From the NCBI GenBank assembly GCA_973895155.1, contig OZ316895.1, forward strand, positions 15,010,816 to 15,074,815: DNA of 64,000 bases, written 5' to 3'. The position numbers were made by a program, and so were the translations under genes. The notes under the pieces are model-generated. The model saw only the letters and a list, made by a program, of their open reading frames with translations, made no database searches and was not told the origin of the DNA. Source of the stretch: Marsupella aquatica (Eukaryota > Plantae > Marchantiophyta). This document shows positions 33,560 through 59,984 of the stretch, piece by piece (the first letter of the stretch is position 1; every line of letters starts with the position of its first letter).

Positions 33560-33819
33560 ATAGATAAACAACTAAACATCGCAATTTGGAATGTATCTGG
33601 CATTTGTGACCCAAACCATAAATATATAATACGGAAGTGGATTCATGATCTGAAATACACAATGCACGTCCTCACCCTCCTTGAAATTAAAGCAAATGAC
33701 TTCAGTCTGATATCTGCTCTAAAACTATAATTGCTCACCTAGTAATAGGAAAGGGTGGAGCAACTATGTTAATTCACCCCTCTATTTGGATAAAACCATC
33801 AGGTATTTCACCCATCTAA
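33560..33819 (+). pseudogene. L1-type LINE APE endonuclease N-terminal fragment (degraded)
   Basis: Hand translation gives DKQLNIAIWNVSGICDPNHKYIIRKWI...HVLTLLEIKANDF, then after a frameshift IGKGGATMLIHPS. These fit the APE motifs WNVxG, LxE.K and GG.A.L. Confidence 0.7.
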
Positions 33820-33899
33820 TCAACATCTTACATATTCTTTCATGATTACCTAGTCTGAGTTTGTTTTCTTGATGCCGATACCATAAGAAATATTTCACA

Positions 33900-36800
33900 T
33901 CATTCTATAAAATGATAAAAGATAGTCATGGTAATTACTGGGTAATTATACACCTTAGTAGTTTTTTATATTCTCATGAATAGAGTGAACCATGGTTCGC
34001 AGTTGCTATGTTTTTGTAAGAGGTCGATCAAAGTATATGAAGAGTCTAGGGTTTTGGGTCAATCACGTACATAGTACTTATTGAACTCAATGGTAACAAC
34101 TTGCCAACTATAAGCTGTGAGGCCAACTCAACTCTGACAATTAGACAAGATTGAGGACACAAAGTTTGTTCCAAAAACTAAGACAAAAGTGTATGCCCTT
34201 GGGTATATTGATTCAAAGAAAAAATAACAACTATGTATCTTAGGAACAGAGGTTAACCTTGATTTTGATTGAATGTCCACATAAAAAATGGTGACACCTA
34301 CACATTGGGTGATTGTCGGTGAAACTGTTGGTTTGTGCATATCAAATAAAGTGGTTGCAAAGGGTATCATTCAAAGTGTGGATCCATCTCGGATTTGCCA
34401 TAATGTTCCTCTTGGGCCCCTTCAAGTTCTTGTTACTTTGGAAGAAGTATTTGATGCGGAAATTCAATGGGGTCATGGTGAAAGCTTGGCTGATATGATA
34501 GGATCCTTTTTAGTCTGGAAAAAAGGTCAACTTCAACAACTTGAAATGGGTACTAGTGAAGACCTACCTGATACCCCATGCAAGAATGGAGCTTCAATGG
34601 TCAATGGAAGTGAAACTAGCCAACCGGAGACCTCAAACGAGAACGAAGTTCAAGGAAACCTACCGGAGCGGTCAAACAAGAATGGAGTTGAATCTAGTGG
34701 AAATCCTCTTCGAATTTCATCCACAAGTTTATGGATGGGAATGGTTGTGAAAGTACTTGATGAAACACATTTTGCCTTTGCCATTGCAAGAGTAATGGCT
34801 GTTAATCCAGAAGTGACATGATTGGGAGATATTACTCTTCAAAATACACATGTAGGAATCTTGATTGATGAATATATTCAAGGTGCAACTGAGGACCACC
34901 TGAAACATAGAGATTGTTTGAGGGCATGGCCGTTGGATAGGCTTGTCACAAGTAACGGAAGGCTATTAGCCTCATTTTTTGTAGATGCAGAGGAGGATGA
35001 TCTAGACGCTACAAGTTGAAAGAGATCATATGTACCAATAACCAGAAAAAGAAAACAACCTTCTATTTCTTTGTCAAAGAAAGACAAGTCCCTTTCCGAA
35101 GAAGATGGGGGGAAATCAAAAGACAGAAATGTTGTCTTCGACGGTGCTGCCATCTTCTAGACCCTCATGTGGCAAAGGAGATTAGGGAGAAATATTGGGA
35201 AAAATCATTTGAGATGCGAAGGGAGTATGAGATCAATGCTATTGTCAATATATTGGAACTATTAAATACTGAAAAACTGATCATCATCGAAGGGAAAGCA
35301 ATATGCTTGGAAGCATGGAGGATTTTGCACTCCAAAGGGCGAAGTCAATTCTACGAGCTCAGAAAGGCTGTGGGTAATGGGGTGAGGATAGCTTATCATG
35401 GAAACCAGGGAAAGAGACGGATGACTGAACGAGTTTCTCAAGCCTACATGTCATTGCATGGGTTGATTGATGAGTGCGCAGATCTTCATCCGGCAAAAAT
35501 GAGGACGGTTGCAGACAAATCTCGACAAGTTCTGAAGGAGCTCCCTACAAGTTATACTTGGGAAAGTATTAGAAACAAGCTCAATGCTACAAATTTAGAA
35601 CTTGGTCTTCAACCAATCTCCCAATCCACATTGAGTATTTTACATCAAAAGTATTTCAAGGAAGTGACAATTCATAAGAAAGGCAATAACTTTTCCAAGT
35701 GTACAACTTGTAGTGAGTTGATGCAACGGAAAGCAAATCTGATGGGTGTGAAAGAAGAGATTGAGATTTTAAAGAGGGATGAAATTGCTCATCATCGTGA
35801 TCATACCGAGGGCAGATTATTATATCACTCTTGGAGACGCCAGTCAGCGGATAATCCAAAACAGGTTTTATGCATAATTCATGATAAAATGGATCATTGT
35901 AAGACTGCATTACCAAGGATGCCTTTTTGTCCAAAAGAAGTGGATGGTGCGATTAAACTTCCGATTACCTTGACTGGTATTTTGACTCATGGCCATAGTC
36001 CAAAGGCTATTGCTCAATATAATGTTGGAGTGTGGGCACCTGATGCCAATGCCACAATTGGTTCACTTGACACAATACTTCGAATGCTGGAAAATCCAGA
36101 ACCAATGATCAAATCTTTAGTGGAAGGGCCAGATTCTACAAAGCTATTTGAAAACTTGCTTGAAGGGAGAGGACCTATATTGGAGGGAAAACTTCGTGAA
36201 GCATTTAAGGATGACATATCAGATCTAGGTAATTATTTCACCATAATGATACAAGAAATTTTGTTGCTTTTGTGCCATATTCAGTATCAAACATGTTTCC
36301 ATTGTAAGTGATGTAACCTTTCATGGTGGCAACCAGGGTTCATTGTTAGTTGTTGTAAAGATTGTTAAATTGTTTGCTCATGTGAGAGTCATTTGCTTAG
36401 GTTAGTAATTTTCTTGATTGTTTTTTATGTGTCTGAGAAGTGCAAACCATGGTTCGTTCACCTTTTAGTTTATTTCAAAATATGAAACATGCATTGTTAA
36501 TTGTTAGTTTATTTGAGAGCACAAACCATGGTTCATTGTTAGCTTATTTGATAGTGCGACCTATGCATGGTTGTCGTTAGTTCATGCAAAAATGAGAATC
36601 ATGGCTTGAACCTTTAGTTTATTTCAAACTATAAACAATAATTTAAATATAGTTCATTCAAGTTTATGTTCATAAATTGTCGACCATGATTGTACATTCT
36701 TGGTAAGTTGTTTTATATGAGATAATATTTAGGCTCTAAATTAATTATTGACCCTAATATATGTGTTTCTTAAATTTGTGCAGCAAATTCACAATCATTG

Positions 36801-38569
36801 GATGCGTCTACTATGTTCAAGCCTCTGCCAAGAGTTTTGAAGTTACAACTTGACAATTGTGCAGGAGATAACAAAAACAGATATGTGTTGGGTTATTTGT
36901 CACTACTAACAGCACGAGATGTTTTTGAAGAGATTCATTTGGGATTTCTCATGGTTGGACATACTCATGAGGACGTTGATGCCATCTTTCGCCATTTCTT
37001 TGAAAGTTTGATGCGAAACCCAACCTATTCTTTGGCAGATCTAATGTCATTGTTAATGGGGGCAAGGACTCCAAATCCAGTGCCCCATTTTGTGCAAGAG
37101 GTACCTGATTTTAAATCATACTTGGAACCTTACTTGCTTAAAGGAGGGGACTCATTGGTGGGGCATTTGCAACCGCGGCTATTTCGATTGTATGTGCGTG
37201 ATGATGGTATGCCATGCCTTCAATACAAAATGAAATGCCAAGATGATGATTGGCTCCCAAGAGAAGGTATTGAGATGTGGTCATGGACAGATAATAATAG
37301 TCCAAAACTTCCCATAGGAGAACCAAAGAGATTACCAATGATAGAGATGGCCATGTTAGAGGAGGTGCGACAAGGACTACACAAGCAAGTGAAATTTTTT
37401 AATTTTGTTTGCAATCGAACTGCATCGGAAGAAGGAAAGGGTAGATGGGTGGCACTGATACAATACTGGAATCAAATTATCCATACGTTGGAGACAGAGG
37501 CAGTGCAATATAGATCTGGAGAGGAACACTTGGTTCATGGATTTTGGCCCATGTCAAAGTGGAGAGATGGTGTTCCTTTGCAATACCGCAATGTGGCATG
37601 TGAGTTGGATGCAAAGATTGGGTACGTGGGGCCAAGGAAAAACAAACCTCGTGAAACTTTTAACCCAAGGGCTGATATTGTGAAAGGTAATTATATATTG
37701 GTTCGACCAGACACAGCTGACCTAGACATTTACCCAGTCTATTTGGGCAAAGTGATTAGTGATGTGGAAGAAGGAGAATTGAATGTCAACAATCAACTTG
37801 AACATGTGTGTATTGTGGAGTGGCATAGACCTTACATGCTACAAAAACGTGGTCAACCAGAATATGAACCACGACAGCGGTGGTTAGATTGCTGGAATCA
37901 ACAATGGGAACGCGATCCGGGGTATTCCACTGAGACGATAAGTGTGAACACTGTACTATGGTGTTTCAAGGCACGGACCACAGCCAAAAGTGGTTTAGTT
38001 AGAATAGCAAAAAGTCATGCAATGAAAGCAAAAGACAATTTGAATAGATGCTTAGAGGATGAGGCAACATCAACTTCATGATACTTAGATAGTGTAGTTT
38101 ACTTAAATGATAAGTGATTGTAAATCATCAATGTTATTTGGTTTATTTGACAGATTGAAAAGACCAGAGTGGTTCTTTAATAAAAGTATTGTCTTCATTG
38201 ATCACAAGAAAGGAACCTGAGCATTGAATGGTTTCCATATGTGGATGTTTATTTATGATGGACCATGGATTATGCATTTCACTCTTACTAGTAAATTTAT
38301 GCACATTAAATAATGTGATTGTACACTCCTTGTAACAGTTCATTCATTATTGGACCATGGATTGCACATCTTTCATTGTAATTGTGCACATGATAATAAT
38401 CCAAGTTATGACATTCTATACCAAAATTATATTTTTTTGGTACATGTGAGTGTTAGCTTAGTAATTTAATTGATTTATTTTGATTAAATATAATTTAATT
38501 AAAATTTCAATCATTCCAAAATTGCACTAATTGTCCAGTTTTATCTAAATAGGGGTTATGGTACGCATG
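33900..38569 (+). mobile_element. Large decayed DNA transposon A (transposase-bearing; left end unresolved)
   Basis: Contains the Sola-type transposase, AACCATGGTT palindromes (33988, 36445, 36524), and an AT-rich tract ending in tccagttttatctaaataggggtt that is shared with element B. Confidence 0.6.
34288..38081 (+). pseudogene. Sola-superfamily (Sola1/DUF7869-like) DDD transposase, intron-containing, disrupted near the 5' end
   Basis: Exons 34288-36228 and 36784-38081 join in phase (GT-AG, 555-nt intron). Catalytic-type motifs CIIHDKMD, LQLDNCAGDNKN and FLMVGHTHEDVD; Cys/His motifs CCLRRCC and FSKCTTC..H..H. Two N-terminal repeats resemble the Tnp1/En-Spm-like domain (VAKGIIQSVDP..HNVPLG). 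In-frame TGA stops at 34819 and 35017 and a frameshift near the G-run at ~35107. Confidence 0.8.
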
Positions 38570-38601
38570 GTTTTATCTAAATAGGGGTTATGGTACGCAT
38601 G
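38538..38601. repeat. Exact 32-bp tandem duplication at the element A / LINE junction
   Basis: gttttatctaaataggggttatggtacgcatg at 38538-38569 and 38570-38601. Confidence 0.95.
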
Positions 38602-39446
38602 TTTACACCGTAAGTAGTTCCCTGTATAAATTGAAAGAGCCTAAGACAACTATCTTTGTCGGACTCAACTATATTCCTCAAACGCTGCATTCGTTGTGTT
38701 AGATCTTTCCATGCACAGTCAGTCGCAGACCCTAAATCTTTCACCTTGCGTACTCCCAATTTACCACATATCTTCACCATCTCTCCTCTACCTTCCTCTG
38801 GTAAGTTATAGAAAGAGTGCAAGCATCTCAGGAGATCATCCACACTCCAGTGCCCTGGGATGGTACCATTTCCAGGGCAGAAGATCAAATTTTCCCTCAC
38901 CTGCTCCCACGCCATCTAGATCCGTCCAGTGTACAGGAGATTGCCAAAGGATCGGGGTGAACACAGAAGTAGTTTATCCTTCATTGAGTACTTATTTCTA
39001 CAAACCACCCTGAAATTCCTCCAGGATGTTAGCTTCAAATTTTCGGCAAACATCAGTGCCCATTCCGACTCAGGATGATCAATCGCTCCAGTGAACCATT
39101 TACTTAAGAGAGCAGCAGAATGGCATCTAAATTCCTTAAGGCCCAGGCCACCGTCAACCTTAGGCCTAGATAGTCTCTCCCAAGCCACAAGTGGGATCTT
39201 CTTACCTCCTAGTCTATTGGCCCCCCACAGAAAAACCCTGCTCAAAGCTGTCAATTTTTTAGCCAATGCAGCAGGTGATCTAAGGAACATCATATGATAT
39301 ACAGGTATAGCTTGAAGTACATGTTTGACTAACATGACCCGACCAGTGAAAGAAAGGAGACGGTTAGACCAAGATGATAATCTGGCACCAATTTGATCGA
39401 GGCAAAAACCATGCAAGTTAGCCTCCGATATCCCATGAGTTTTCAC
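38602..39446 (-). pseudogene. L1-type LINE ORF2 fragment (region C-terminal to the RT core)
   Basis: LSSWSNRLLSFTGRVMLVKHVLQAIPVYHM...FLWG...LVAWERLSRPKVDGGLGLK...ALLSKW is the typical plant L1 post-RT signature. In-frame stop at 38916-38918; truncated at both ends. Confidence 0.9.
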
Positions 39447-39892
39447 AATGTTTATTTGATGCTACTAGGGTATGTCAGTATTCAAAGGAGCATCAAGAGA
39501 GTTTTTTTGGCCATAATTACGGACCCCCATGAGAGGTCTCTTGCAAATTCCCTGCCATGAGGTTGCGCCACATCATCACAACCAGCCACAAACAGGAATG
39601 ATCATACTTTTAACAATAACAAACGTGCACATTCCTGTTTGTGGCAAAAGCAACGTAATTTTTGGGGCGCCATGCCGTAAATATTGAACGTAAAAAAAAC
39701 CAAAATACAAAGGGAGATATGTCATTTAGTAAAATAAAGTTACCATTTTGATGTTTGTCAAAGATATATCAGTGTTTTATATCAAAATGCTTGTATTTTT
39801 TAATTGTTTGCAAGCTTGAAAAAACCAACCAATAGAAATGTACATAGTTAATTAAAACCCCTTTGGCTTCACATTGTAAAACTAAATAATCA

Positions 39893-40375
39893 ATCTCCTT
39901 AGTACTTGATAAAATCTGTCAATGTTTGATTCATTGGAAAACTCAAGATCAAGATTGAGAAACTCGTGACCTCTTTAGTATTGTCTTGATAAAATCTCTC
40001 AATGTCACACTCATTGGAAAACTAAAGTAAAATTAAAAACTGATCATCTCCTTAGTACTTGACAAAATCTATCAATGTGAGGTTCATTGGAAAGCTAGAG
40101 AAATTCAGATACTCATGATCTCTGTAATTCTTGACGAATAATCTCAATGTCACACATTAGAAAGCTAGAGAAATTGAAAACTTCATGATCTCTTTAGTAA
40201 CGTGACAAAATCTGACGTACAATTTGTCAATGTCGGACTCGATCATGTTGGAAAGCTAAACGAACTCATGGACTCATGATCAATATTTCTTATACTCACT
40301 CATTGGAAAGGCAAAGAAATTCAAAAACTCATTTGGAACTTGACAAAATTTGTCAATCTGAGGCTCATTGGAAAC
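39893..40375. repeat. Degenerate tandem array, ~70-bp unit, about 6-7 copies
   Basis: Recurrent unit atctcYttagtacttgaYaaaatctNtcaatgt...tcattggaaaRct; variation lies within conserved positions rather than in unique spacers. Confidence 0.8.
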
Positions 40376-42479
40376 CCTTTCTCGACTAAGAGATATCACA
40401 ATCTCATCACCGTCACAAACTTAGAGGTTGAAACTTGATTTCTTTGATTACGTCGCCATCCCTTGTCCACAATGCTTGTTTCCCGGCTTGAATTGTTTGC
40501 ATTCCTCTAGTCTTCAACTGAAGCTCACTCTGAACACAGGTTGACGCCAAATGCAGCCTCTATGTCAAAGAAACAATCATTGGTCTCCCTCTCACACCAT
40601 AGCTTTCTTAAATAAAAAAATTGCAAATCCTTCATGTGAAGCGATGACTTGTTTGTTTTGTGTGTTCTTCCCACCGAATCAACAAGCGCTCTTTTGCCAA
40701 TAGCTAAGTGTTGTCCTCCGGTCTGTCTTGTGACGGTAATGCTCAATGTAACTCACAAACGATCAATCATGAATGATAGAAACACAATTTCTCTAATGTG
40801 TAAGCAAAAACCGTAAAAAAACTCAATTCCTCCATATTCAACCTTTCGTTGATAAATCTCCTCTATCTTTTGAGCGTTACTTTTCTTTTGTACGAGCACA
40901 CACCAAGACCATCGGGAGACTCAAAACCGTCGATTACCTGGGCGATTACCGCCTTGTTGAAAATTGATTTCACTTCATCAAACACACATTCCTTGGATGA
41001 ACATGGGGGTCCACGGATTCATTTGTTGTTTAAGGCCTTTAGGGGTGAAACTTTTTATGCTGCAAGCTGCTGTTGCTGTTGCTTGAGCTTTGCTTGAGAT
41101 TTACCCACTAATTAGTTTCCTCTTTTGCTAGCATTGGTTTAGTAAGGGGTAACCGCTAATTATTGAATTTTGGTGTGGTTAGCCATGGGTACTAGAAACC
41201 AACCAAACTTTAAGTTAGTGAGTTATTATCTTGAGTTTTCAGATTGTCTTAACTAGTAGGGGACAGGCGGTTGGATTTTTGGCATCTAGTCAGATACCCC
41301 TGCTTGACCCTCTTATCTCTAGTCTTTTTGGCTTTTTGGCCTTTTCTTGTTCTCCCTTGATTGGGTTTTTGGCCCGTGAGATCTTGTCTCCCACTTGGAC
41401 ACCTTCTACTGCTTGGCAATAAGTTTGATATTTTTTTTCTGGTGCTATTAGGGTACGTTAGTATCCAAAGTGTCTCAGCCCTTGAAGGACACTATTTAAG
41501 CCTTGTCTTGATAATTTCATTGATGGTCTCTTTTCTACACACATACATTGTCTACCCGATTGTCTAGAATGATACTAGTTACATTAATTGTAATATTGAG
41601 GAATATTGTTTCCCATATTGTTTGCTTAAGGAGTTTAGGGTTTAGGGATTCAATTTAAATACACATTAAGAAGTTAGCTCCAAGGGAGTTTGGGCCATAC
41701 CTCCATCTCCTTGTGGATGCATGGGGATGTGGAAAGCAAGGACATAGCATAAGTCTAAACCCTAAATGTACCCTAAGACCTTTTGATGGCTTTTATTAAA
41801 GCTGTTGCTACATATCATCAAACTGGTAGAAAACAATATATTAAAGGGGCCTTTCAGTCATTGAACCTTATCATATTGCTCTGACCAGAAGCTTCCATCA
41901 CCAGATTTTTCCAAAATTTTGAACACTTTAATAAAGATATGTGTAAAGTAAGTAGGTCCTGAGTTCCACCCTAAATTTAATCTAACTCAAGATCAGACGT
42001 GCTAGTTTTCCATTAGTCATGAAGTACATCGATCCTAGTACTCTGGTTGCCCTTTGCGCCACTTGATCATGTTGCTAATGCAATGTGCTACAACTAGATG
42101 CTTCTTGCACATTACTCTAGTTACCCTCCTTGCCAATCTATTGTGTTGCCACAGCTGCATTGTGCTCCACTCAAACTCAGCTGGTTGCCCTCGTTGCCAA
42201 CCAAACGTGTTGCTCCCGCAGTGTGCTCCTTGCAATTCACTCTGGTTGCATTGTCTGGTGGCTTGCCAATTGTTTGTGTTGCACTATGTGTCATCCAAAA
42301 TTGTTGCCCTCTCCATTTTGTTTCAACTAAGGATTTTGTGGGCAGCAAGATGGCAAATGGAGATTCAGATGATCAATGCAATCAATTTTTTGGGAAGCCT
42401 GCCTATGGAGGAAATGCTCCCTCCACTGGTGCATGACCCATGCAAGGCACAACCAGGCCAATGATGATTTGTGTGCTCA

Positions 42480-45330
42480 AACACTAGTCATATCAAATTT
42501 GACCCATTGTTTTGTAATTTATGCCACTAGTGACCTTGGCTACATTGTGCTGGTTGTCTAAGATTTTTGGGGTACCCTTGTACATCAATTTGGTTCCAAT
42601 TAGAGGTAACAAGCCTTGGAGATTGCACAGCAAACTAGCCTTGTCATCCATTGCCATGAGAATGACATTTGGAAGTATCTTCAGACATGCGTGTGTCATT
42701 TCCACTAGGTGCAGCAACTCAAACTTACTCTAGTGTTAATGGATGCCACTACACTTGACACTCCACCAACCACTTCCAGATGAGTGGAAAGTCTCACAAG
42801 TGCACATATGACTCAAGGGATGTAGTTGTTGAATCAGCTGGAGATGCTACCACACCAAAGAGCTTGGAATTTGGAAGCTTGTAACTATGGTTTTGGAGTG
42901 ATTTGCATAAAGATGGTCCCACTGCCTAACACCTTGTTACTCATTGTCTGGTGAGTGTCTGGTGAGTGTGTAATGTTTTATACTAGGGACCCTTAATTCT
43001 ATACCAATGTTTCACTTATTATAAGGCAACTTAGTATGGGAGATTGAACCACAAACTAGGTTTGCAAGCCATTGCCATGAGAATGACATTTGGAAGTTTG
43101 TATGGTCTTTGAGTGATTTGCATATTAAGTTGGCCCTAGCTAGCACCCAACACCTTGGTAACTGAAACACTAGTGTTAGCATATTTTGATAGATTCTTTT
43201 GTAATTGAGGTCCATCAAGTGATCCTTGCCATTGCCTGGTGATTGTGTAAGGTTGTATGGGGCCGGACCCTTCTATATATAGCAATCTTTCACTTAAATA
43301 GGGCAACAAGTCCAGGAGATCGCACAAAAAACCAACTTTCAAGCCATTGCCATGAGAATGATTTTTGAAAGTAGTTATGTGGGTTTGTTGTTTCTGTTGC
43401 ATGGAACAACTCAAAATCTTGTGCTTAGAGACACATGCAATTGCATTTTCCACTCCAAGAGCCACTTCCAAACAAGTGCTACAATACACAAGTGTATATA
43501 TATCACTAGCTCAAGGGATGCAGTTGTTTAATAACCGATTGAAAATGCTACCATTAATACCAAAAGAGCTTGGCATTTGGAAGTTTGTATCATGGTCTTG
43601 AATTGGAGTCATTTGCATAAAGTGATCCTAGTACCCAACACTTTGGGTGCTAAACCACTAGTCATACATATTTTGACCAAATGTCATTCTTATGGTATTG
43701 GATGGCAAGGCTAGTTTGTTGTGCACTCTCCCAAGCTTGTTCTCCATAAATACGTGAAACATTGGTATAGAAAGGTACCCCAACAATGTTAGACAACCAG
43801 CACACTGTAGCTAGGGTCAAGTGCTACAATTACAAAACAGTGCATAGTGTCAAGTACCTCCATCAATCTATGTGTCATTTCCACTAGGTGGAGAAACTCA
43901 AACTCTAGTGCTAACATATGTCAGTGCACTTGCCACTCCAACAACCACTTCCAAATGGGGTCATTGTAGCGTGCGAGGAAACAGTAAAAACTTTCCTTGC
44001 ACGGGCACATTTTCTCCTTGCAATATGCAAAATCTGTCATGAAAATTGCCTTGCTAGCATGAAGTGACTCTCACTAGCCTAATTTAACTATTTGTTTTTA
44101 AACATAAACATCACTGTCTCATTGGATTTACCACTTGTTTGCTGTTACGAGTAACTGTTTGCAGTTTGCTATTTGCTGTCACGGTGGTTATACCCTAAAA
44201 ACAACATCATGAGAACGGGCAAGGACTAACGGTCCAAACTTAAGCAATCCCAGGAGCACATTCCCAAACAGAATCCAAAGCACCCTACAATCTCCCGCTT
44301 GCCACCATCCCCCATATCTCACTCGGACCTTTGGCCACCTCTCCATTCCTCCCATTTTGGTCATTGTTTTCCCCTTCTCTTCTCCACGGGACTCCAAGAG
44401 TGCTTTTCTTCTTCTCTCTGCGGGACTACAAGCGTTCTAGTGTTCTAGCAACGATCTCCTCTTGTCGTGGCATTGCACAATATACCTCCATGATTACATG
44501 CACAAGGGATTTATAAGTTTGGTTCCTTGACATCTTATCCCCCGGATGTTACTTTCCTCTATGCACTAGTTCAAGGTATCTCAGTTCTTTTCGTCTTCTC
44601 TAAGTTTTGGCCCGCTATTTGTTCAGCTTTGAGGTGTAGAAGGTCATTCCCAAAGACCCAACATATGTTCCTTTGACACCTTTGGAAAATGCCAGACATA
44701 AGTCAATGTTGAGTGTTTGTTACCCTAAGATTGACCCCTGTCCAAGAGCGGCCGTTGCTGGATCGGATGATGAGTTCACAATCCAGGAGATGAATAGGCT
44801 AGACCTTCAAGCGAGAAAGATGAATTTGACCTGGAGTAAATTGGTTACCATCGACTCTTACAATTTTTCTGTGTGTAAGTTTTTGGCGATCCATACTTTC
44901 CATGTAAAGAGGGACCATGTTTTGATGAAAGTGTGTGCTATTTGGTGATTTTTTTTTAATGTCAATGCATATGAGAATGATGCATGTTTTTTCCTTGTTA
45001 TATTACTTTCATTACTGGACGGGAGGGCAAATTGAGAATTGGCCTTTGTTTTTCCCGGAATGTATTATGACTTTGACGGAAGAAATTGCCTCGCAAACAA
45101 TACTGCCTCGCTAGCAAAATCTTCTCTTTGCTTGGACCATAGAAGTCCTCTTCCAAATGAGTGGTAAATTTCATAGGTGCACATGATATGATCGACTCAA
45201 TGGATGCAGCCGTTTAATCTGCTGGAGATGCTACCACACCAAAAGAACTTGGCATTTGGAAGTTGGGATGGTCTTGGAGTGATTTGCATTAAGATGGTCT
45301 TAGCACCCAACACCTTGGGTGATCAAAGAC
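42480..45330. repeat. Cluster of degenerate direct repeats (probable TE relic)
   Basis: ccattgccatgagaatga at ~42648, ~43069 and ~43344. atgctacca...ccaaaRRaRcttggMatttggaag at ~42844, ~43545 and ~45228. gtgtcatttccactaggtg at ~42693 and ~43872. Confidence 0.7.
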
Positions 45331-48001: not shown

Positions 48002-50779
48002 AATTGTTTGTTCCTCCCCTGGGCTGGCCGTGAAATGCATTTCTTAACGCTTTGTTGCAGCTCATAAGTTGGTACCTTTTGGCTGCAGATCGGTTGATTG
48101 AAGGAAACCCTTTCTATCCAGCAATGGTTTCCTTGAACCTACTCGCAATGTTGCCGTGAGCAAGGGTTGGATCCTGGTAAATTTATCTGACGTTGCTGCA
48201 TTGAATAGTGTAGCAGGCCGAGGTCTAGATTGAACCACTAGAGAAAAGGTTCGAGAGATTTCAAAGAGTTGCGTTCTTGCTGCTGTTGCCTTCAGTACTG
48301 CTATTGCCTTTACATGATACCATTAATACTACATGGAGTCATTGTGCCAAGCTCCTAGAATAATTCTCAGCTACTTGATTGTAGGAACAATCAAAAATGG
48401 CTTTTGGACGAGTGAAGGTGATTTTTGGGAGTGAGCTATCCAGCTGTGCCAGGCCGGAGTGATCTTTCCCAAATTTTCCAAGGCTCGGGAGGGACATCTT
48501 CAAAGAAGGTATTGATTTCCAAATTGATTCACTTGTTTGAGATGCAGGTAACGAGATTACGTCTATGCATGTTACTAGAAGCAATTGATTAGTCCTGCCA
48601 TCAAGTCTTTGAGGTCAAAGTAAGAGCTCCAATACTAGTTAAGCATAGAGTATTCAGTTAATATGTGGGAATAAAGAAATTGCGAAAGGCAGCAGCTTGT
48701 GTGATAATCGTGAGTCTATTGCCATTCCTGTTGCAAGCTTGCCTTCACCCTGTAACTGGGCATGAATGTCATCTCCGTTCCATTTCCATGAGATCAAAGA
48801 ATGTTGTTGAGCCCCTGTCCTTGGCTTGTTGAATGTTCTTGCTGTGAGAGTAACGCTATATCACTTACTGAATATTGGCAAGGCACTGGACCTGTTACTA
48901 GCAACGTAGCTACATGGTAGATCAAGGGCTTAGTTTGAGGTGAATTAGAAACTGATTGGATCAATTAGTTTGGCCCTTCCAAGATTGAATTTGGTGAGTA
49001 AGGGTCGGGAATGTATTGCCATGATTGAGTAGAGTGGGGAGGTCGGGACGGCTACCTGTGTCACAGCATGAACTCATGTTTCTTCCTTGCACGTCTTGTT
49101 TCTTCCATGAAATTGTTTGCAGCCTCTTTGGTAGCTAACGGGGACGCTGTTTGAAAGAGAGAAATATTATATTTGTAAGAAGAAGGCTACAGACTTTAGG
49201 GCCGGTGATTACACAAGAAGTCCATGGTGGGGTGATGATGCACTCCAGGTAATTTTATCCCATCCTCAACAATTTTGACAACCAAGCCTGGAGTACCTTC
49301 ATTCATCGTCTCCAGTTTTCATTTGGTCTACAAGTCTCACATGTTTTCAGATTGTCTTTTGCTTTCCTCAAAACTAGTTTTTCTTTAGCTTAGTGTTCCT
49401 TTGTCAGCTCCGCTCTTGCTGTTTGTGCGTATTATGTGGATTAATTTGTTTGCTGATCGACCATGCCTGTCAGTATTGAATCTTGTTCCCGTAACTCTGC
49501 GAGCTCAGTAAGCGTTTTAATACTCTAGTTTTGGTTTGGCTGACTCCTTTTTGTGGTGTAGTATGCTGTGTGAAGGCATGGAACGCCAGGAAATACTCTC
49601 ACATGCTATGTGAAGGCCAGGACTATTCTCACTCACCTGGTAAGTGCTGCTACCCCATAGAGGCCACGTACTAGCATCTACTTATGAGATTGAAAGTTTA
49701 TAGATCCATTATACTGTTGGACATCTTCAAGTCTTGATCGCTATTTTGGAGGCTTTGTTAATTATAAACTTGTTGATGATATGGCATATCTGTATCTCTT
49801 TGAGTTTGCTACTTGGTCACAATGATATTTGTACAAAGCAGGGTACACAGTGGAACTAGCGACTATCTCCACCTCATCTATAAATTTGTTCTGAGTGAAC
49901 ACATGTTGTCGCATGACCTGAAATGAAACTAAGAATGATCACGTAGAAGCCAGTCCGAATATCTTGCTACGTACGTTTTCACCCGTGTTTTCAATGTGAC
50001 AATGAACGAATGATCTTGTCTTGCTTTCTCCTCTTCGCATCTCATCAAGACAACTAAAAGTGTCACCTCATTCAATCATGATCGACATGGTTGCAACCTG
50101 CCTCCAATCTCCTTAGTCCAGAGTGTGCTAAAGATTTTGTAGCAGGATTTGTCCAGTTGTGCTTGACTATTCCTAAAGGCCATCTTATGTTTATTAAGGG
50201 TAACCAAAGCCTAACTCAATGTAATCACAACTAATTAAATTAAAACATTTGGAGGATCCTAATATCCCCTTGTTCCCACAATCATAACTCAAATGAATCC
50301 ATATATGAGTCCGTCCAATCATTAAGTTGTTCTTACGTGTACACCTTATCAAAGAGTACTATCCCTGAGGCCGTCTAGCTACTTTGTCACTATGGACAGT
50401 CCATTTCCTGAACCTATTCCATGTTCTGGAGTCCCAATACAATCACTCCATACAATCACTCGACTGTCATTCTAGCAAGTCCCACTTAAAAAAATCGATT
50501 GCATTTTATCCCTACTAGCTGGAACCATTATTTGCAAATAAGTTGTCTATCACGTCTTGTCCCATTGGCCCCTTTGTGGTAAATTAACCCATTTAGCCAT
50601 TACATCTGTTCAAACCCGGTTCATTTATCCATTGCTGCATGAACCATGGTTCGTGAAGCAATATTAGACTCCGGCCACTACCATTGCCCCAAACTGGACC
50701 CGATTATCCATGGTTGGCACATTATTATGCCACCATTCCCAAATCTGGCCCAATGTATCCTACATGGTATGAACCATGG

Positions 50780-51355
50780 TTTGCTCTATGAAGAAGTGTA
50801 AGACTCCCATGAGTTCTCATAGCTCCCAACTAAGCTTGACTATCTGTCTTTGTTTTAGCCCGCCATTTTTTGGAAAATGGATTTCTATTTGCAATTTCAG
50901 CACGAACCATGGTTCGTTGTATAATAGAGTCTGTGACTTCCACTCTCACAAGTCTCAACTAGGCTTAACTATCCCCTTTTGTCCTACTTTTAGCTAGTCA
51001 TTTTTTGGCAAATGGATTTCCATTTGCAATTTCAGCACGAACCATGGTTCGTTCTATGAAATAGTCTGTGATTCCCACTCTCACAGGTCTCAATTATAAT
51101 TTCAGCTTGAACCATGGTAGACCAATAGGCCATGCATGGCTTGAACCATGGTCTCAATTATAATTTCAGCTTGAACCAATAGGCCATGCATGTCCACCTA
51201 GTCCATATCTTACCCTAAAGAAACCATGGTTATACTATACATGAATTGAAATCACCTCTTACACCACGAACCATGGGTTGTACTATACATGAATTGAAAT
51301 CACCTCTTACAGCACGAACCATGGGTTGTACTATACATGAATTGAAATCATCTCT
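50780..51355. repeat. Subterminal tandem repeats of element B (~135-bp units and a 48-bp unit x ~3)
   Basis: aatggatttcYatttgcaatttcagcacgaaccatggttcgtt at ~50876 and ~51011. tactatacatgaattgaaatca starts at 51233, 51281 and 51329 (48-bp period). Units carry AACCATGG. Confidence 0.9.
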
Positions 51356-51855
51356 CAATTCTAGTCTAAGATATGAGCCAGCACTATCATTTGAGTGATT
51401 CAACTTTGTTATGTTTTCAATGACATGAACCATGTAGAGTCGTTTCTCTGAAGTTGATCTTAACCATGTAGAGTCCTCTCTAAACTTAATCTTTCTAGTC
51501 AAGTTTGTCAAACCCTGTTGTCCTATCGAATTGGTTTTCCTGTAGTACTGAGAATAAATACTAGTCACAACCCTGGCCAAAACTAATTGTCATTGCACGA
51601 ACCATGGTTTGCACTATCCAAAGTCGTCTTTGATTTTTTAAGATTTTAGAGCTTGTGGCATGAACCATGGTTTGTTCTAAAATTTGCCAAGATCCAAGGA
51701 ACTATTTATTGTGCCTAGACTTTGCTTCTAAAAAACATTGAACCCTAAGTCTTTAACCTTAAACATTTTTGACACATTTTTTGATAGTATACTTATCACA
51801 TTTGTTGTTGTTGTTGTGTAGCTCGCGCAAACTTGTGTTTGACAACTACACAAGC

Positions 51856-54800
51856 ATGGCATCCGAAGGAGAAACTAGCAAGAAGAAACGGAAGACCTTA
51901 GGAAAAACTGATGGGAGCACCCCAAAAAAGAAAGCCAGAGTGAAGAAGAGTGCCCCGAGTTTGGATTCCATCAGCAATTTTTGTGGGAGAAAAATGACCT
52001 TGAAATCTACAGTAACTGATACTGTTCTTCGAGTTGATCCAAAAGATATGAAGCACTGGGGGGTGGTGCTTGATAACAATGTTCTCCGTATGTGCATAGC
52101 TTTTGAAGAGGAGACTTTGGTATTGTCCAGCTCTAGGATACTTAGTTGTGTCTATGAGAAAAATGTAAACCTGAAAGATTGTCAAGAAGCTTTGGTACTT
52201 TTGGTTGAGGAGAATACAGGCATTGAAGAATCAGAAAATACCAGGATCTGCTATTGTTTCTCTAGAGAAGTGTTCAGGATGTTTGATCAGACATACATGG
52301 AGGCGAATTGCAGTTTCTCACTAGAGGCATTTTCAGCCATTTGGGATCCCACTTTCCCAAAAGTTTCTACACTCATAAATGGCCAGAACATTGAGAGGTA
52401 TGTGCTATGCATATTGTCCTGGGCAAATTGCACTTTTGCAGAAACATTTCGTGTAGGGAAGAAGGAGGACCTTGAGAAGCATTCCAAATTTGAGACTGGA
52501 GAACTTCCCAAATTGATCACTGGAGAAAACATAGGAGATCTTTGCAAGAGTTTCAATGGTGCTTATAAGAAAGCAAACATCTTTGACAGCAGAGTTTTCA
52601 ATGTTGAAAATTCAAAATGTCACATTGCACCCAATGTTGTAAAATGTAGAGGTCATGATCCTGATTACCCACGAGATCTTGCCAATTTGATGAAATTTCA
52701 ATCGTTGGTAAATTTTGAGAAACGAGTTTGTTTCCTCATCCCTGTGTTATGGGCAGAGAGCAGGAGCACTGAAGTTGGCTATTGTGGAACTCCATTGACA
52801 CAGCCACCTATCCTTGATCAAATTGACAATTATCATTTTTGGATAATTGGAGGCCAGCACACCGTTATGGCCTACCGGTTACTTTTGAAAGATGAATCAG
52901 TGGCTCTTGAGATTCATCAAAAATGTTTTACAATTGATGCAGTCATGTTTTGGGCACCATACAATTTGGCTAGCAACTTGGTGATGATGGGATTATCTAA
53001 GACATTAAATCATGTTCATCACACAGCAATGGATGAATCTCAGTTTTTCCTCATTGCAAGGCAAGTTAGGGATATTTGGAAAAGTTATGGGCGTCTTCCT
53101 TCAGAGACAAACAGCATAAGACTCAAAATGGAGGGTAAGAATACAAATCTCTATTCTTGTTTAACTTCTGCTCATTCATTTTGATGCATAGATTATGAAA
53201 TTAAATTAGTGTGAACCATGGTTTGTACTCATCTTATGATTTTATTGTGATTGTCTAAACAACATTTCATGAAAGCAGCAATGATCGTCATTCCTTGGGC
53301 CAAAGATGAGAAGTACCGATTGGGAGAGCTTGGACCTTTCATCTTGAATATGACAGATTCCACCCTCAACTTATGGATGAAAGTATACGAGATGTCAAGA
53401 GAAGGAAAATTGGTGGCTTTCAACGGGTTCCTACAGAAGGATGTTATCAAGAAAGATTCTGTTCGAGGAGCTTGGGAGGTTGCCCGAAGAACATTTCGAG
53501 ATTTTCTTGGAGTTGAGGATGAAGTGTTGATGAAGATTGCAAGGAACTTCTTGCCAACAAGAAGATTTCGTTGATGAAAGAACGAAGTAGCGGAATTGTG
53601 AAGAAAATAGATGCAGTTCCCATTGAAGAAGATTTCATTGCTCTTGATGAGTATTGTGTTAAAAAAAACACAATAAGCAGTTTGAAATATTGCTTTTGAA
53701 GTATCTTGCAAAAGACAAAATGACTAGGGAGAAGTTACAGGCATTGCCCATGGAGCAGAGAAGGGAGAAGGTGAATGCAATGAGAGATTTCTTTAAGCTT
53801 ACTCCCGAAAAAGCTGAAAAGCTTCGAAGTACACTTGGACCTATAGTGATCCCAAGATCGCTAACGAAAACCACTAGAAACAAAGAGCTCCAAGATCTTC
53901 TTCCTGGAGTTTTCAAGAGTCTGATCTGGTCAATCAGGGCTTCTGTGGATGAAAAAGGTAATCCGATGGTGATGCAACTTGATACAAAACTTAGGTTTTG
54001 TTCAAGTAAAGGATTTGGAACTGCTGAATTTTTTGATCCAATCGTCTTGGAGTTGAAAGAAATGTCATCATTCATATTCTTTGATGCTACCATGATGTCT
54101 GGAGTAAGTTCAATGACACGAAAGACATATGAAGCATTCTTTGATGCTACAATTATCATTGGGTCAAAACCATCTCATGTTGTGGTAGTGGTATCAACTG
54201 CAATCAATGCTTTTTTTGTGATGAGTGCTATTTCAGCACACCCACATTATGTTGCATTTACCACACAGTACCAGACAAAATCTAAATCGTCATCTTCAGC
54301 ATCGACAGTTTATCATTCAAATTGTCTTTTTGTGACTTATGCATTCTTCAAGGTGTCATTCACTGAAGAATGTGAAGCAGAAGAAATTTCGACAAAAATT
54401 CTGTTAAGCTTTAAGAAAATAGGATTCTTGGGGAATTACGAAGAGACAACAGAAGATGTTGCAGAGCAGACTCAACTTGGGGAGAAGAGCAGAATATTCT
54501 ACGATAACTTGACTTCTCAACTTGTTTCATTTGACAAGCTTTCAGTTTGTTTTGGAGATGGCCAACATCTTACTGACTCACTTTTGTTATGTGTTTCTAA
54601 ACCCAAAACCTTAGAAAGTCTATTAAATTTCTGATTATATTCTAATCCCAAGCAAATATTAAAACTTTGATTGTTTTGCAGAAATTAGGAGCCCGGGTAC
54701 GTTCATATTGTAATGAGTCCAACCACGAAAGCCTGACACAGTTCTTTTCTTCCACAACCCAATCTGATGAGCCTGAAGAAGCACCGTGTGAGCTACGGAG

Positions 54801-57215
54801 TATTTTGGTGAAAAATATTTCCAGATTGATGAAGTATAATTTGGCCAAGAAGAACACGAGAGAAGACATTGTTGGGCTTTGCAAAGATACCCTCCACCTT
54901 GGTGAAAGTAGTATTGCTCGTGTGATCAAAGAATATGGATTGGATGACACTCCTGAGTCAGATGATGAAGTCTACAAATTTCCTGTTGATGTACCAACTG
55001 GTCCACTTGGAGGTTAATATATTAACCATACTTTTTGATAAACTAAATTTTTGAGTAACTTCAGATAAATTTTGAATCAATAAGTTCTCAAATAAATTAT
55101 ATATATGATTTAAGGTAGAGTGATTGATTTATAAGAATAGCTACGCACGAACCATGGTTTGAACAAGTTAAACTTATGAAATTAGATAAGTTGAACTTGT
55201 GGAGTTAGATATTTAAATTGCATCAATCATGGCTCTAAGTATGCAAGTTAGTTGAACTTGTGGAGTTAGATATTTAAAATGCATCAATCATGGTTCTAAG
55301 TATGCAAGTTAGAGATAGACTCATTCATATAGAGTAGAACAACTCATGATTTGAACTTGTAAAATGAATCTATTAATTCATTTAATTTATTTGTTTTGTG
55401 GAACTTGAAAAATGAGACATAATATAGTGTGAACCATGGTTTACACTTGTCATATATACATGTAGTCATCAAAGATAAACAAAACAACTTGATGTCTGAA
55501 GAATGACCATTGATAATTAAAAGTCAATCCATTCATCACATTTATTTATAGTTCTTTGTTTTGGTTGATTTATTTTGGTTGCAGGAGAAAGTGATCTTGT
55601 TGAGGATGAGGACGAAGATGACAACATTGATCCACCAAATGATTCACAACCATTAAATCTGGATAACATGGAATCACAAGATGATTCAATGAAAATTCCT
55701 GACTCGTTCAGGGCTTTCCAAACCAAACCAGAGTTCAATGTTGAACAAGAGGCAGTTTCAATGGCCAAAGAACAAGACTCTACGGTCTCAACTCTAGACC
55801 CAAACAATGTTAAAAATATACAATCAGATTGTAGCCTTGTTAGGGTGCAAGAATCAAAACAAAAAATTACATATGATGAAACCAAAAATACAAATGAGCG
55901 AAGAATGATTGTCCGGAAATGTATGTGGGAAAATTACATTCCTGATCAGGAAACTAGTCGACCCGGTCATATTTCTAAAGCTGATTGGGATGAGTTTTTT
56001 CAAAGCGAAGCTCAATTCCATGGGTGGAAAGCAAAAGCATATTGGGCTGAAGCTTTGACTCGTCGCTCCGGTTTGGAAACCCCTGAACAAATCATTAATT
56101 TACAAGACAATATCTACTATGCATCAGAAGTATGTGAAATGGTTGGAGACCCTCCTATCCATGATTTTGCCATTCAAAGTGAACCTGAAAGCACTATTCA
56201 TGAGTGGACTTGGATGAAGCAGTATCAACTAACCTCTAGTAACTCTATCTCTACCTCTATAGAGACAGTGCCCGTGTCCAACCTTGACACACCAAATACA
56301 TGTGCAATCAACAATTCTACGGTGGAGCAGATGGATTCATTAGTGATCAAAACTAACATTTTGGACAGGTCTACCATAACAACAGAGCCAAGAAGCATTG
56401 AAAATGGTCCAGCGGTGGATAAGATGGATCCTTCAAAAGTTGAACCTAATATTTCAATGGACAACGGCATATTTAAGCGATTGCACAACATGACGATGGG
56501 GAGGCCGGTTTTTGCACAACATTTGGAGCCAAGAAATGTTGACACCAACCTAGCAGTGGAGCAGATAGATCATTTTTTGGATGTGCCTTTCACATCAATA
56601 GAGGCAAGAAACGGTGACAATAGTCAAGTGGTGGAGCACAATAGTCAAGTGGTGGAACAGATGGATCCTTTTGAAACTAACATCTTGCACCTGCCTTCCA
56701 CTTTGACAGAATCAAGAAATGCTCATTTACATGTGGATCCGGTAATGGTGTCTCACACATCGTTGGATTCTATAAAAAATGGTGGTGATCCTAGAATGAT
56801 AAGCAATTATAAAGTAATGGAGCCTCTAAGGGGTGGGAGTAGTATTTTAGAGGAGCCTAAGATTGTTTCACCAAACAAAGAAAGTCATCCTAGGATGTTC
56901 ATTGATACTTTGCCAGAATCAAATGTGAAAGAAATTGTAGATTGGGAAGAGGAGGCATCTACTGCAGCCTACGCTGATGGATTGAATGAATTGCCACCTC
57001 CTTTTTTGGGCATCCCATTAGTTTCAGCTTCTTCTCATGGAGATTGTTCACAAACAACTACTGCAACAAAAATAGTGCTTCCTAAGGCTGATTCCAAGGT
57101 GAATCCAGTTCGGGCCACTCGGCGGGATTCAAAGCAATCTTCAGTGATAGAGGCGGTTACTATACCGCCAAAGGTGAAGAAGATACCTCAACAGATTTTG
57201 CGAAACAAGAAGTAA
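51856..57215 (+). pseudogene. TE-borne multi-exon gene: NLS + ParB/Srx-like region + degenerate beta-class DNA amino-methyltransferase-like region + acidic low-complexity region (two frameshifts)
   Basis: Phase-compatible exons 51856-53134, 53276(or 53279)-54592, 54682-55012 and 55585-57173/57215. N-terminal KKKRK..PKKKARVKK; HFWIIGGQHTVMAY (ParB/Srx-like) at ~52834-52875; SFIFFDATM..YEAFF..KPSHVVVV and EKSRIFYDNL..CFGDGQHLTDSLLLC|KLGARVRSYCNE follow beta-class MTase motif order. Single-base frameshifts near 53540 and in the A8 run at 53661. Confidence 0.6.
55189..55311. repeat. ~61-bp tandem duplication in an intron of element B
   Basis: agttgaacttgtggagttagatatttaaaWtgcatcaatcatggYtctaagtatgcaagttag occurs twice. 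Confidence 0.85.
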
Positions 57216-57504
57216 TGATTTTAGGGACCTTTTGTTTAGTTATTTAGGTCCACTTTGAATCCAAATTAGCAAATTTGCTCATTCTAGATGTGAATTGTGT
57301 ACTTTTGTTAAGTTCAACTCTTTCAACTGAAGTAAATGTTGAATGTTCAAAGCGTTGTTACCTATTAATGTGTTTTAAAGCTATATATAACGTACCCCAT
57401 TATTACACACATGGAATTTATTTACAGAACGAACCATGGTGCATGGTTAACTTTAATATTATATACACTTGGGTACTATTATAAATCTTGTGTTGTGTAC
57501 ATGT

Positions 57505-57556
57505 TCAGGGTTTAGGGTTTAGATTCCATGTTTAGGGTTTAGGGTTTAGGGTGTAG
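57505..57556 (+). repeat. Interstitial plant telomere-type (TTTAGGG)n tract
   Basis: ttcagggtttagggtttag-attccatg-tttagggtttagggtttagggtgtag. Confidence 0.85.
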
Positions 57557-57677
57557 ATTCCATGTTTATTTTGGACTAACTAACACATTTATTTGTAGAA
57601 TGAATCATGGTGGGTAGTTAATTTATGACATATGTTTGGGTACTATTCTAAATCTCATTTGTTTGTATTGTGTACAG

Positions 57678-58226
57678 GTGAGAGTTGAAAATTTATTCAG
57701 GAAATTACTTGTCATAAGTATCAACAAGTTCCTCATTTACACAACTGGGGTCTCTCGCCATTTGAAGAAGACATCATCTTTCCGAGTGTATAACAAAATG
57801 GTCTTCCCAAGACCATATGTGCAAGAATTTCTTGAATTTTGCACTTCAACTTTTGATGTGGTTCTTTGGGCACTCACTGACGAATGCAAACTGGCTGATC
57901 AAATGGATCCAATACTCACAGATAAAGCTTTGAGTTTTTCTGGTCTTAAGTTTCTTACATCAACTCTGATGGACATGAAACAGATCAATGATATTTATCC
58001 ACAATATCAAAGACAAAATGTTATATTTTTAGAGTGTTATCCATCATTTGATAGCGTAAATCCAACATATTCAAGGCTATATCCCAAGTCATATTATGGT
58101 AATTGCAAAGACAATTTTCTTAGAGGCACACTTATTCCATATTTACGTAAATTAGAAGATTCTGATCAGACAGCACGTAGTTTCATTAAACATAATTATC
58201 CTACTTGGTCTGTAAACGACCAATGA
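57678..58226 (+). CDS. FCP1/NIF (HAD-like CTD phosphatase) homology domain, catalytically degenerate; probably the last exon of the element B gene
   Basis: Acceptor tgtacag|GTG. KLLVISINKFL sits where KLLVLDxxGxL is expected; VFPRPYVQEFLEFCTSTFDVVLW; NVIFLECYP..VNP..P.SY.G..DNFL..L.PYL follows the FCP1-homology C-terminal pattern. Confidence 0.7.
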   Translation: MRVENLFRKLLVISINKFLIYTTGVSRHLKKTSSFRVYNKMVFPRPYVQEFLEFCTSTFDVVLWALTDECKLADQMDPILTDKALSFSGLKFLTSTLMDMKQINDIYPQYQRQNVIFLECYPSFDSVNPTYSRLYPKSYYGNCKDNFLRGTLIPYLRKLEDSDQTARSFIKHNYPTWSVNDQ

Positions 58227-59984
58227 ACCACAGCTTGTGTGGTGCATGTAGTATTTAGAATATATTCAATTGTATTTTTTGGATCATAATAAAGGTGACC
58301 TTATCCAAGTGAATGATTGATATTTATGAATGATTTTGATTGTGATGTTTTGCCATATGTTTACTCATCGAGCAAAAATTCTAGTGTTGACATTCATTTT
58401 CGGAGCATGTATTAATATACTTGTATTCCAATTTTCTTCAAGAATGTTATTTATAATGGACAGCAAAACCCCAAAGAATTAGAACGCAAACAACACAACT
58501 ATCCATGAACAAGTGGAACAATTCTCACCAAGAAAACTAGGGGTAAATATTGATTTTCATACTTAGAGTATTGTTCTTGTTAGCGGACTATAATAATTTT
58601 GCCCTTGCAAAGCTAAAGGATATTTTAATTTGCAAAACATTTTTACATAATCCTATTTTCCTTAGAATGTCGCTCTTGTGTTAAGGAGGGTTTTGACTTA
58701 TTTTATTATAAAGGAACATTGTTAAGAAATCATATTTTCCAGAGAGCATTGTTCTTGTCACAAAGAGTGCTTCAAGTAAGTTTTTCCATTGCGAAGCTCC
58801 AAGAAATCATGTTTTTCAATCAAGCTTGAAGCATTGCTCTTGTGATAATATGCACTTCGAATACTTTGTCGTTGTAAAAGTACTGAAAATTTCAAATACA
58901 CTGTTAAATGTAAACTTTCACTCCATTCTATGCATGTTTTCAATTCACTTTTATGTGCATAATCTTTAAAGGTAACTGAAATGTAGGTAAACAGTCAGTA
59001 AGAATTATTATCTAGAATATCTCATTGTTAAGTGGAAACTGCTCAGTTTATGTGTCACATTCCATGGAGATGATGACAACTTCCATTCCATCCAAGCTTT
59101 GGTTTTGTACAAACCATGGTTTACTGTATGTTTAGACACTTAAATTGGTTTATTTGGTGTAAATTGCCACTAGTCACATGTGATTAAACTTGGATCCATA
59201 GGAATGACCTATAATAGTAGTATTTTGCCGATGTTATGAAACATACTATACTTTCAAACTAGAGGAAAAGAGTTAGTGGAATGGGAAAAAAGGAAGTCTT
59301 AGACACTTCCCCCTTGCATATAGTGTTTTAAAATAATAATTAATTAATTATTAAATTAGTTAAATAAATTAGTAATAACTTTATCAAACTTCATTTAAGC
59401 ATTTCTGGAATTGAATATTCCACTTTTATCTAAATAGGGGTTTATAGTAGGATTATAAGCGTCTAATGACTTCGCAGTTCGAACCCGACTTTGTTAGCAT
59501 CTTTCTGAATCACTGCCTGGAGGAAATTGGATATTTGCAAGAGATTATAATATGACAGAGAAATCATTTACTCGGTTGCAGAGCATTCAGCATGACTCTC
59601 AGGATCAGATTTGATAGCCTGGTGTCACCTTAAAAATAGATTTGATTTATATGACGCATATATTATTGTTGCAATTATAGTGTGGATCTCGTTTCACATG
59701 GAGACACACGTAGCACAGTAATGTATATACTTCAATCTTGTTTAGACTTAATATATATAAGTAACAGCGGCATGGATGAATAAAATAATATCCCTATCGC
59801 ATCACCATGGCCGCCCTTTTTCAGATAACTGTCCGGTGTCTTTATAATCATGTATTATAAGTGAGAAAATAGATGATAACATAGAGGTAAAATAATGTAC
59901 ATACTTTAAATCTAACAATTGGATATACTAATAGCTGGATATCTCAACTGGCATAGATGATCTGAAACTAGTATTTAGTATAGC

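Follow-up and report, generated by a model that had tools for sequence, protein, structure and literature searches.

In a 64-kb stretch of DNA from Marsupella aquatica (GenBank assembly GCA_973895155.1, contig OZ316895.1, positions 15,010,816 to 15,074,815 of the forward strand; hereafter, the window), two regions on the + strand contain the remnants of large transposable elements. Element A (33904..38557) carries a transposase pseudogene, and element B (50619..59442) carries a cargo gene whose first domain is likely ParB-like. The two elements share a terminal sequence and a palindrome. We suggest that A and B probably belong to one large Sola1-type family and represent its two arms, A that with the transposase and B that with the cargo, present as two truncated insertions, and that the cargo protein is a predicted binder of the palindrome.

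Element A, the probable transposase arm

Element A is truncated on the left, where sister contigs with high depth align to it from 33904 rightward and have at least 1508 other bases upstream; its right limit was set by comparison with relatives. It contains the pseudogene of a Sola-type DDD transposase (34288..38081, +) with a single intron (~36230-36783), a stop near 34819 and frameshifts near 35000-35106. The assignment, which upholds the label given in a preliminary description of the window, is based on a Pfam match to DUF7869 (E value 1.3e-36), on 28 relatives found among longer proteins (741-1252 amino acids), on tblastn of the relatives and on the positions of the motifs DKMD (35883), QLDN (36846) and GHTHEDVD (36957), which we take to be marks of Sola-type transposases. 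The three acidic motifs are kept in the window transposase and in 24 of the 28 relatives, while the remaining four are without the first pattern. In a tree of 29 transposase cores, the window protein and 18 relatives, including four Riccia proteins, form a supported group (100/99) that stands apart from the named animal rows.

The element ends on the right in a terminal inverted repeat (38539..38557, +), the reverse complement of which starts with AACCCC, in line with the AAC...GTT ends of the related elements L023, L054 and L095 described below. In the window, 38538-38601 is an exact 32-bp tandem duplication of this terminus plus 12 flanking bases, the second copy lying at 38570..38601 (+). 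A terminus-like match at 33777 (16 of 20 bases) was first read as the left end of A and was ruled out; it is absent from the sister copies, the following 130 bases resemble neither arm, and the match is probably due to chance. Element A seems to be inserted in a decayed endonuclease region of a long interspersed nuclear element (LINE) on the + strand (33560-33900 and 38558-38900), and a LINE reverse-transcriptase-like remnant on the - strand adjoins it (38916-39461). The LINE labels for these flanks are presumptive, being based on sequence motifs, and obtained no support from Pfam or tblastx.

Element B, the probable cargo arm

Element B is read from the inside outward and is likewise truncated on the left; its limits follow contig depth and the homology to other copies, which starts near 50619. 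Exon 1 of the cargo gene (51856..53134, +) encodes a basic N-terminus, a domain of unknown function and the ParB-like domain (IIGGQH near 52845). Exons 2-3 (53260..55017, +) encode a helical region, followed by a stretch that may represent an inactive amino-methyltransferase-like region, and have frameshifts near 53546 and 53663 and a lost acceptor at 53259. A long, partly repetitive coding exon with a stop at its end (55585..57215, +) is without a family match, and sister copies omit parts of it. Further downstream lies an FCP1/NIF-like domain (57678..58226, +), recognized by Pfam (NIF; E value 1.8e-10, 41.2 bits against a cut-off of 21.8) and by alignment with copies in relatives, which is either the final cargo exon or a second cargo gene. 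Telomere-like TTTAGGG runs are present at 57507-57555 within the last intron. The arm ends in a terminal inverted repeat (59424..59442, +), and a contig branch point lies near 59444.

The evidence for a ParB-like domain comes from profile comparisons. Exon 1 has 36 relatives, at E values up to 0.001, among 1.84 billion representative sequences. The profile of this family matched an alignment of eight phage ParB-like proteins with a probability of 91% (E value 1.1e-6), a figure that is not fully independent because the phage alignment was seeded from a weak match to the same stretch; against exons of the related elements L094 and L095, the family profile gave 69%. Tests with single sequences were weak (PHROG, E value 0.17; tblastn, E value 0.7; hhalign, 57% and 1.7%). 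Judged from these comparisons, the first domain of the cargo protein is likely ParB-like, and its core carries the G(Q)H motif. The protein P0074 from the liverwort Calypogeia links the ParB C-terminus to the next two window segments, and because it spans them, we treat the ParB region and the two segments that follow as one gene. The named plant relatives of the A and B proteins come only from the liverworts Riccia and Calypogeia.

The preliminary description had labelled the cargo as ParB-, methyltransferase- and phosphatase-like, and these labels fared differently. The first stands on the profile evidence above. The phosphatase-like label holds for the domain family but not for the catalytic motif: FCP1/SCP phosphatases have DxDx(T/V), where the window has SINKF and three aligned copies from relatives have DSKGV, NVNGV and DLNQI. 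By sequence, then, the FCP1-like domain is real, yet without the catalytic motif. The methyltransferase label was not confirmed. The cargo matched no methyltransferase family in Pfam, NCBIfam, PHROGs or phage tblastn, and the region in question gave no significant pairwise match and has no DPPY-type motif, the expected site reading FFDATM in B and FFYASI in a liverwort relative. FGDG in B and YGDG in L054 occupy the equivalent methyltransferase-like place, which is suggestive only.

In a low-confidence model, cargo residues ~56-150 (window 52020-52310) form a run of strands and one helix that, by eye, resembles a PH domain. A PDB sequence search returned chance matches only, a word search found no longer relatives of exon 1 (weak evidence), and no RNA data set matching B was listed. 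The protein-atlas neighbours of 51856-53133 are fungal DUF3723 clusters (0.92, low recognition), which is a lead only. DUF3723 is named in Starship papers and may be another ParB-like transposon accessory; a literature search found no paper pairing DUF3723 with ParB.

A palindrome and a terminus shared by both elements

The palindrome AACCATGGTT occurs in 14 exact copies in the window, three in A (33988, 36445 and 36524) and 11 in B (50642-59112), compared with 0.05 expected in A and B together under a first-order Markov model; the copies are not independent because several lie within tandem units. It is absent from the other 50 kb of the window, so that the confinement to A and B claimed in the preliminary description is exact, and none of the other repeats in the window carries it, a check that the same description had proposed. 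No other 10-mer palindrome, whether inside or outside A and B, is present in more than two copies. All 14 copies are non-coding under the exon model of this analysis. The consensus reaches ~22 bp and is a dyad, AGNRYGAACCATGGTTCRYNCT (17 sites), the variants of which are consistent with CpG decay. An array at 50620..51675, which lies upstream of the cargo gene, holds seven exact copies plus variants in tandem units of 135 and 48 bp. Outside the array, palindromes are dispersed over 33988..59121; those of A lie upstream of the transposase gene and in its intron, and those of B in introns and the 3' region (53214, 55150, 55432 and 59112, with a variant at 57432). Only 1 of the 14 copies is within 1 kb of a terminus.

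The terminus TTTTATCTAAATAGGGGTT is found at 38539-38557, at 38571-38589 (in the local 32-bp duplication) and at 59424-59442, that is, three matches where 0.05 are expected. The ends of A and B agree over 24 bp at 96% and in both cases follow an AT-rich tract, as had been described. The four bases after the terminus are ATGG for A and TATA for B, and this difference favours two separate insertions. A search of metagenome contigs with the terminus pattern gave no match.

Complete relatives contain both genes

To place the two arms, we used related elements. Alignment to the transposase confirmed 407 metagenome stretches, and the best 80 of these comprise 65 non-redundant loci, which are mostly decayed, AT-rich and plant-like. 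By our own count, 30 of the 65 have a sharp right end, ...TAAATATGTGTT, resembling the ...TAAATAGGGGTT of the window. Both termini are visible in four loci (L023, L054, L025 and L012). L023 (675-11947) spans 11.3 kb and has ATAT on either side, the transposase on the + strand and three FCP1-like pieces on the - strand. L054 (2797-16315) also has ATAT on either side; one of its termini adjoins the 3' end of the transposase and the opposite one adjoins FCP1-like pieces, and the middle part of its transposase is inverted. The cargo of L054 is the best match of the B-family ParB profile among the 80 loci (E value 0.016, compared with 0.74 for a reversed-sequence control), and the same profile finds a second colinear piece in this element. 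The GGH stretch found at 8200 in L054 is not ParB but the palindrome read as codons. L025 occupies the same site as L023, is internally deleted and is flanked by ATAT and TTAT. The flanks of L012 do not match.

A genome collection gave 11 further loci. Two of them are long, L094 and L095; in both, a ParB-like gene faces away from the transposase on the other strand, and their spliced genes indicate that they are probably mis-binned eukaryotic DNA. L095 is complete (13,750 bp), with AAC...GTT termini, TTAG on either side, the transposase on the + strand and the ParB-like gene on the - strand. In both loci, the cargo gene ends in a stretch whose pattern resembles methyltransferase motif I. The three complete relatives (L023, L054 and L095) have termini that start with AAC and 4-bp target duplications. 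Each window copy retains one end only, and the duplication is therefore visible in the relatives alone. Sola elements are reported to prefer AWWT as a target (PMC3845634); ATAT in two of the three complete relatives fits this preference, TTAG and the ATGG and TATA of the window do not, and other right flanks vary. Transposase and cargo queries gave no match to viral contigs.

The related elements have palindromes of their own. These were counted in 46 metagenome loci of at least 4 kb, with 8 judged unlike the same group left out. GTGGCCAC occurs in 139 copies in 43 of the 46 loci, compared with 9.4 expected, and at 24 right ends there are 45 copies in the final 1.5 kb inside the element and 0 in the 1.5 kb outside. 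In L094 the word is TTGAAATTTCAA, with 30 copies, and in L095 a ACTCAnnnTTGAGT-type pattern, with 15 matches, in each case in arrays on both arms. Because the layout is the same and the word differs from family to family, the cargo protein and the family palindrome are likely a co-evolving pair, as far as sequences can indicate.

Pieces of the transposase are recurrently inverted or duplicated within L024, L031, L046 and L054, and palindrome arrays might promote such rearrangements. In L056 (1-1939) and L045 (5120-6047), cargo-type arms that end in a terminus lie upstream of the transposase arm and in the same orientation, which is the order of the window; such elements may often re-insert locally, close to a sister copy. 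Beside the Sola element of L094, on a contig labelled bacterial with spliced genes, there are open reading frames (ORFs) on the - strand (14666-20594) for a replication helicase that we presume, from its motifs, to be Helitron-like.

Copy number and sister copies

Contig depth was taken from four runs (two studies, two organism labels). In all four, depth is raised over B from ~51600 to 59423 and drops past the terminus; over A, raised depth extends to 38558. In run X1, high-depth contigs of A have depths of 131-152 and those of B 108-123, and in run X4 the values are ~1215-1341 and 830-1290; such similarity within a run is weak evidence, as depth is not copy number. High-depth sister contigs differ from the window at the broken sites (+1 base at 53546, -3 at 34818 and +1 at 35106), which makes a better-preserved subfamily likely. 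One sister contig of B has tandem 54-bp units at 50619-50672. In the window, both genes are interrupted by stops or frameshifts, and A and B are decayed copies of multicopy repeats, that is, dead relics.

Surroundings in the window

By its content, the window resembles DNA of a non-flowering plant. An AP2-domain transcription factor gene (26213-29599; weak Pfam match, partial exon) and a mitochondrial carrier gene (63406-63882) flank the repeat-rich middle of the window. A different, very high-copy repeat occupies 39517-41000 and beyond; it has a sharp left end at 39517, a depth hundreds of times that of its flank and degenerate 70-80-bp units, and the bases with which it begins are found again at 14335 and 23386. 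The repeat region at 42531-45290 has long inverted arms (42531-42672 and 43677-43819) and several dispersed direct repeats. Inverted-repeat pairs resembling miniature inverted-repeat transposable elements, and a shared repeat end that is also present at 13234 and 21741, lie at 20460-21326, 2255-2597 and 33513-33548.

Discussion

Based on the layout of the complete relatives, we suggest a model in which the arms seen separately in the window were probably joined in one element of this family. A is read as the transposase arm and B as the cargo arm because the two genes lie back to back in these relatives. In this model, an intact element would consist of a terminus, an outward-facing cargo gene, a spacer with palindrome arrays, an outward-facing transposase gene and the second terminus. 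The end shared by A and B is most likely the terminal inverted repeat of the family. The preliminary description had seen A and B as same-orientation derivatives with the same end; more likely, each exposes a different one of the two inverted ends of an element whose genes lie back to back. Its broader claim of one family combining transposase, cargo and palindrome gains support from relatives with both genes inside one terminus pair and a target duplication.

By analogy with ParB at parS, dimers of the cargo protein would use a ParB-like clamp to load onto the palindromes and would then coat their own element, a step that we regard as evenly balanced. The coat might either keep the element expressed or bring its distant ends, 11-20 kb apart, together for cutting; by analogy, an anti-silencing role is conceivable and no more than tentatively proposed, and end pairing is about equally tentative. 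Those parts of the protein that resemble a methyltransferase and a phosphatase would have no catalytic activity and would serve for binding. Whether self-recognition of the ParB/parS kind, in which the cargo of each family recognizes the palindrome of that family, spreads over the element and uses dead modules (methyltransferase-like and RNA-polymerase-CTD-phosphatase-like) to shield copies from silencing or pair ends, extends across giant Sola elements from liverwort-like plants to animals is a speculation that we hold with considerable doubt. If true, it would represent a second anti-silencing code in plants, bacterial-derived and independent of VANC.

Several observations weigh against the joined family with a palindrome-binding cargo. 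No contig listed bridges A and B. An exact 4-bp duplication is present in two of the four two-ended loci (L023 and L054, both ATAT), and L094 has inverted ends with no target duplication. FCP1-like cargo is found in 4 of the 65 loci, and two of those four supplied the profile. B exon 1 alone has no match in the metagenome loci, a frameshift-aware alignment of B to L054 is not significant, and the middle and methyltransferase-like region of B match neither L054 nor L094/L095. The AlphaFold models (predicted local distance difference test scores of 37 and 35) are unusable, and to these points must be added the partial dependence of the phage ParB comparison. Finally, palindromes remain in loci where no cargo is visible, an example being L025 with its internal deletion.

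The last point leads to the main rival for the role of binder, the transposase. In this alternative, the layout holds, the palindrome is a transposase site (serving as subterminal repeats or in self-activation) and the cargo is carried along and has a different role. We consider this possible, and clearly less probable than not. The palindromes of the relatives cluster near the ends and persist without visible cargo, and a preprint describes a Mutator transposase that alone activates cognate copies sequence-specifically (10.64898/2026.08.24.746577). By contrast, the sites of the window are upstream of genes and in introns and nearly all lie more than 1 kb from a terminus, and perfect dyads suit a ParB-type dimer, which we count against the transposase. 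A red-algal element is also described with inverted-repeat arrays adjoining its ParB gene (bioRxiv 2025.02.11.637652).

It is unlikely that A and B are instead separate elements, namely an autonomous transposase element and a cargo-only non-autonomous partner, with termini and palindrome in common, moved in trans. The missing bridge is as expected for such a pair, the subterminal regions of A and B diverge past ~24-35 bp and the AT tract, the depth of A contigs in X1 and X4 is ~1.1-1.25 times that of B contigs, and giant non-autonomous families bearing accessory genes alone are reported in PMC12477816. However, the complete relatives hold both genes inside one terminus pair, and there is no convincing second terminus on A or B; the match at 33777 lies beyond the part that sister copies have in common with A, in the apparent LINE remnant.

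A single insertion split by a local inversion is highly improbable. The arms are 12 kb apart, inversion of the transposase arm and its flank would yield the order seen in the window, and internal inversions are known in relatives; against this, ATGG and TATA do not match as a single duplicated 4-mer, whichever orientation is taken, and the left and right flanks of A both read, by their motifs, as presumptive parts of one LINE endonuclease remnant. An active methylase is unlikely, and we give very little credence to a cargo amino-methyltransferase that writes N4-methylcytosine or N6-methyladenine at the CCATGG core to mark its own element, since the supporting hints (an Ectocarpus accessory protein annotated as ParB plus N4C/N6A methyltransferase in PMC12477816, the motif I-like cargo ends of L094/L095 and the FGDG/YGDG correspondence) stand against the lack of any family match and of a DPPY-type motif.

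We favour palindrome binding by the ParB-like cargo. Proposals of transposon-borne ParB-like accessory proteins have already come from algal genomes, where, according to the accounts cited here, they are untried experimentally. The present analysis contributes a family from a land plant, in which sister copies of high depth differ at the broken positions; in addition, four related families, each with a different palindrome, make a swap of cargo proteins and words feasible. If binding proves cognate-only, it would explain the persistence of very large cut-and-paste elements in methylated plant genomes and offer a source of sequence-specific chromatin tools.

Comparison with known systems

The preliminary description drew a link to the VANDAL/VANC system of Arabidopsis, which holds as an analogy only. 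As reported in PMC5735166, VANDAL elements have a short, family-specific motif in non-coding DNA (introns, intergenic regions and termini) that is multiplied in tandem repeats, as is the case here, and VANC protects them from silencing. However, that system combines a Mutator transposase with a DUF1985/DUF287 protein, non-palindromic motifs of 8-9 bases and an experimentally shown function, none of which applies to the window family: the transposase of A hits DUF7869 and has no Pfam match to Mutator-like elements (MULE), and no DUF1985/DUF287 was found in five cargo ORFs or 15 relatives.

Bacterial and phage ParB/parS systems pair a ParB core bearing the G(Q)H motif with a palindrome of ~16-22 bp. 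The window family is similar in its ParB-like core with G(Q)H and its palindrome of ~22 bp, and differs in that no ParA gene was seen and the sites lie in introns of a eukaryotic transposon. A CTP (cytidine triphosphate)-binding arginine patch and a DNA-binding helix-turn-helix were not identified in the ParB-like cargo of the window.

The design as such had been taken for a possibly undescribed system, and it is in fact reported in algae. Sola1-1_Ec32 of Ectocarpus (PMC12477816) is, as described there, a large Sola element with AACCG-CGGTT termini, which start with AAC like those of the window, L023, L054 and L095, a 4-bp duplication and an opposite-strand accessory gene with a ParB-like domain, a layout that is seen in the relatives and would hold for the present family too; the authors of that paper propose self-binding and self-modification. 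Its ends are a 282-bp imperfect repeat, compared with ~20-35 bp shared by the window termini, and the word palindrome does not occur in the main text of that paper. Unlike Sola1-1_Ec32, the window family is from a land plant, has one or more added FCP1-like domains and has an unsupported methyltransferase domain. The Plavaka element with PAG3 of Bostrychia (bioRxiv 10.1101/2025.02.11.637652) is likewise presented as a giant DNA transposon with a ParB-domain accessory gene and adjoining tandem inverted-repeat arrays, and PAG3 is proposed to bind the sequence of its own element; it differs in its EnSpm/CACTA transposase, in the fusion of ParB to a 2-oxoglutarate oxygenase and in a methylase on a separate gene. 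Our literature searches, which did not cover the green-algal reference cited by PMC12477816 or the supplements of the Bostrychia preprint, found no land-plant case of the design. Because publications already describe the design for a Sola1 element of a brown alga and a Plavaka element of a red alga, we place the window family as a land-plant variant of it and not as a member of VANDAL/VANC; what is new here is the land-plant lineage, the added dead FCP1-like domain or domains and the family-specific palindromes.

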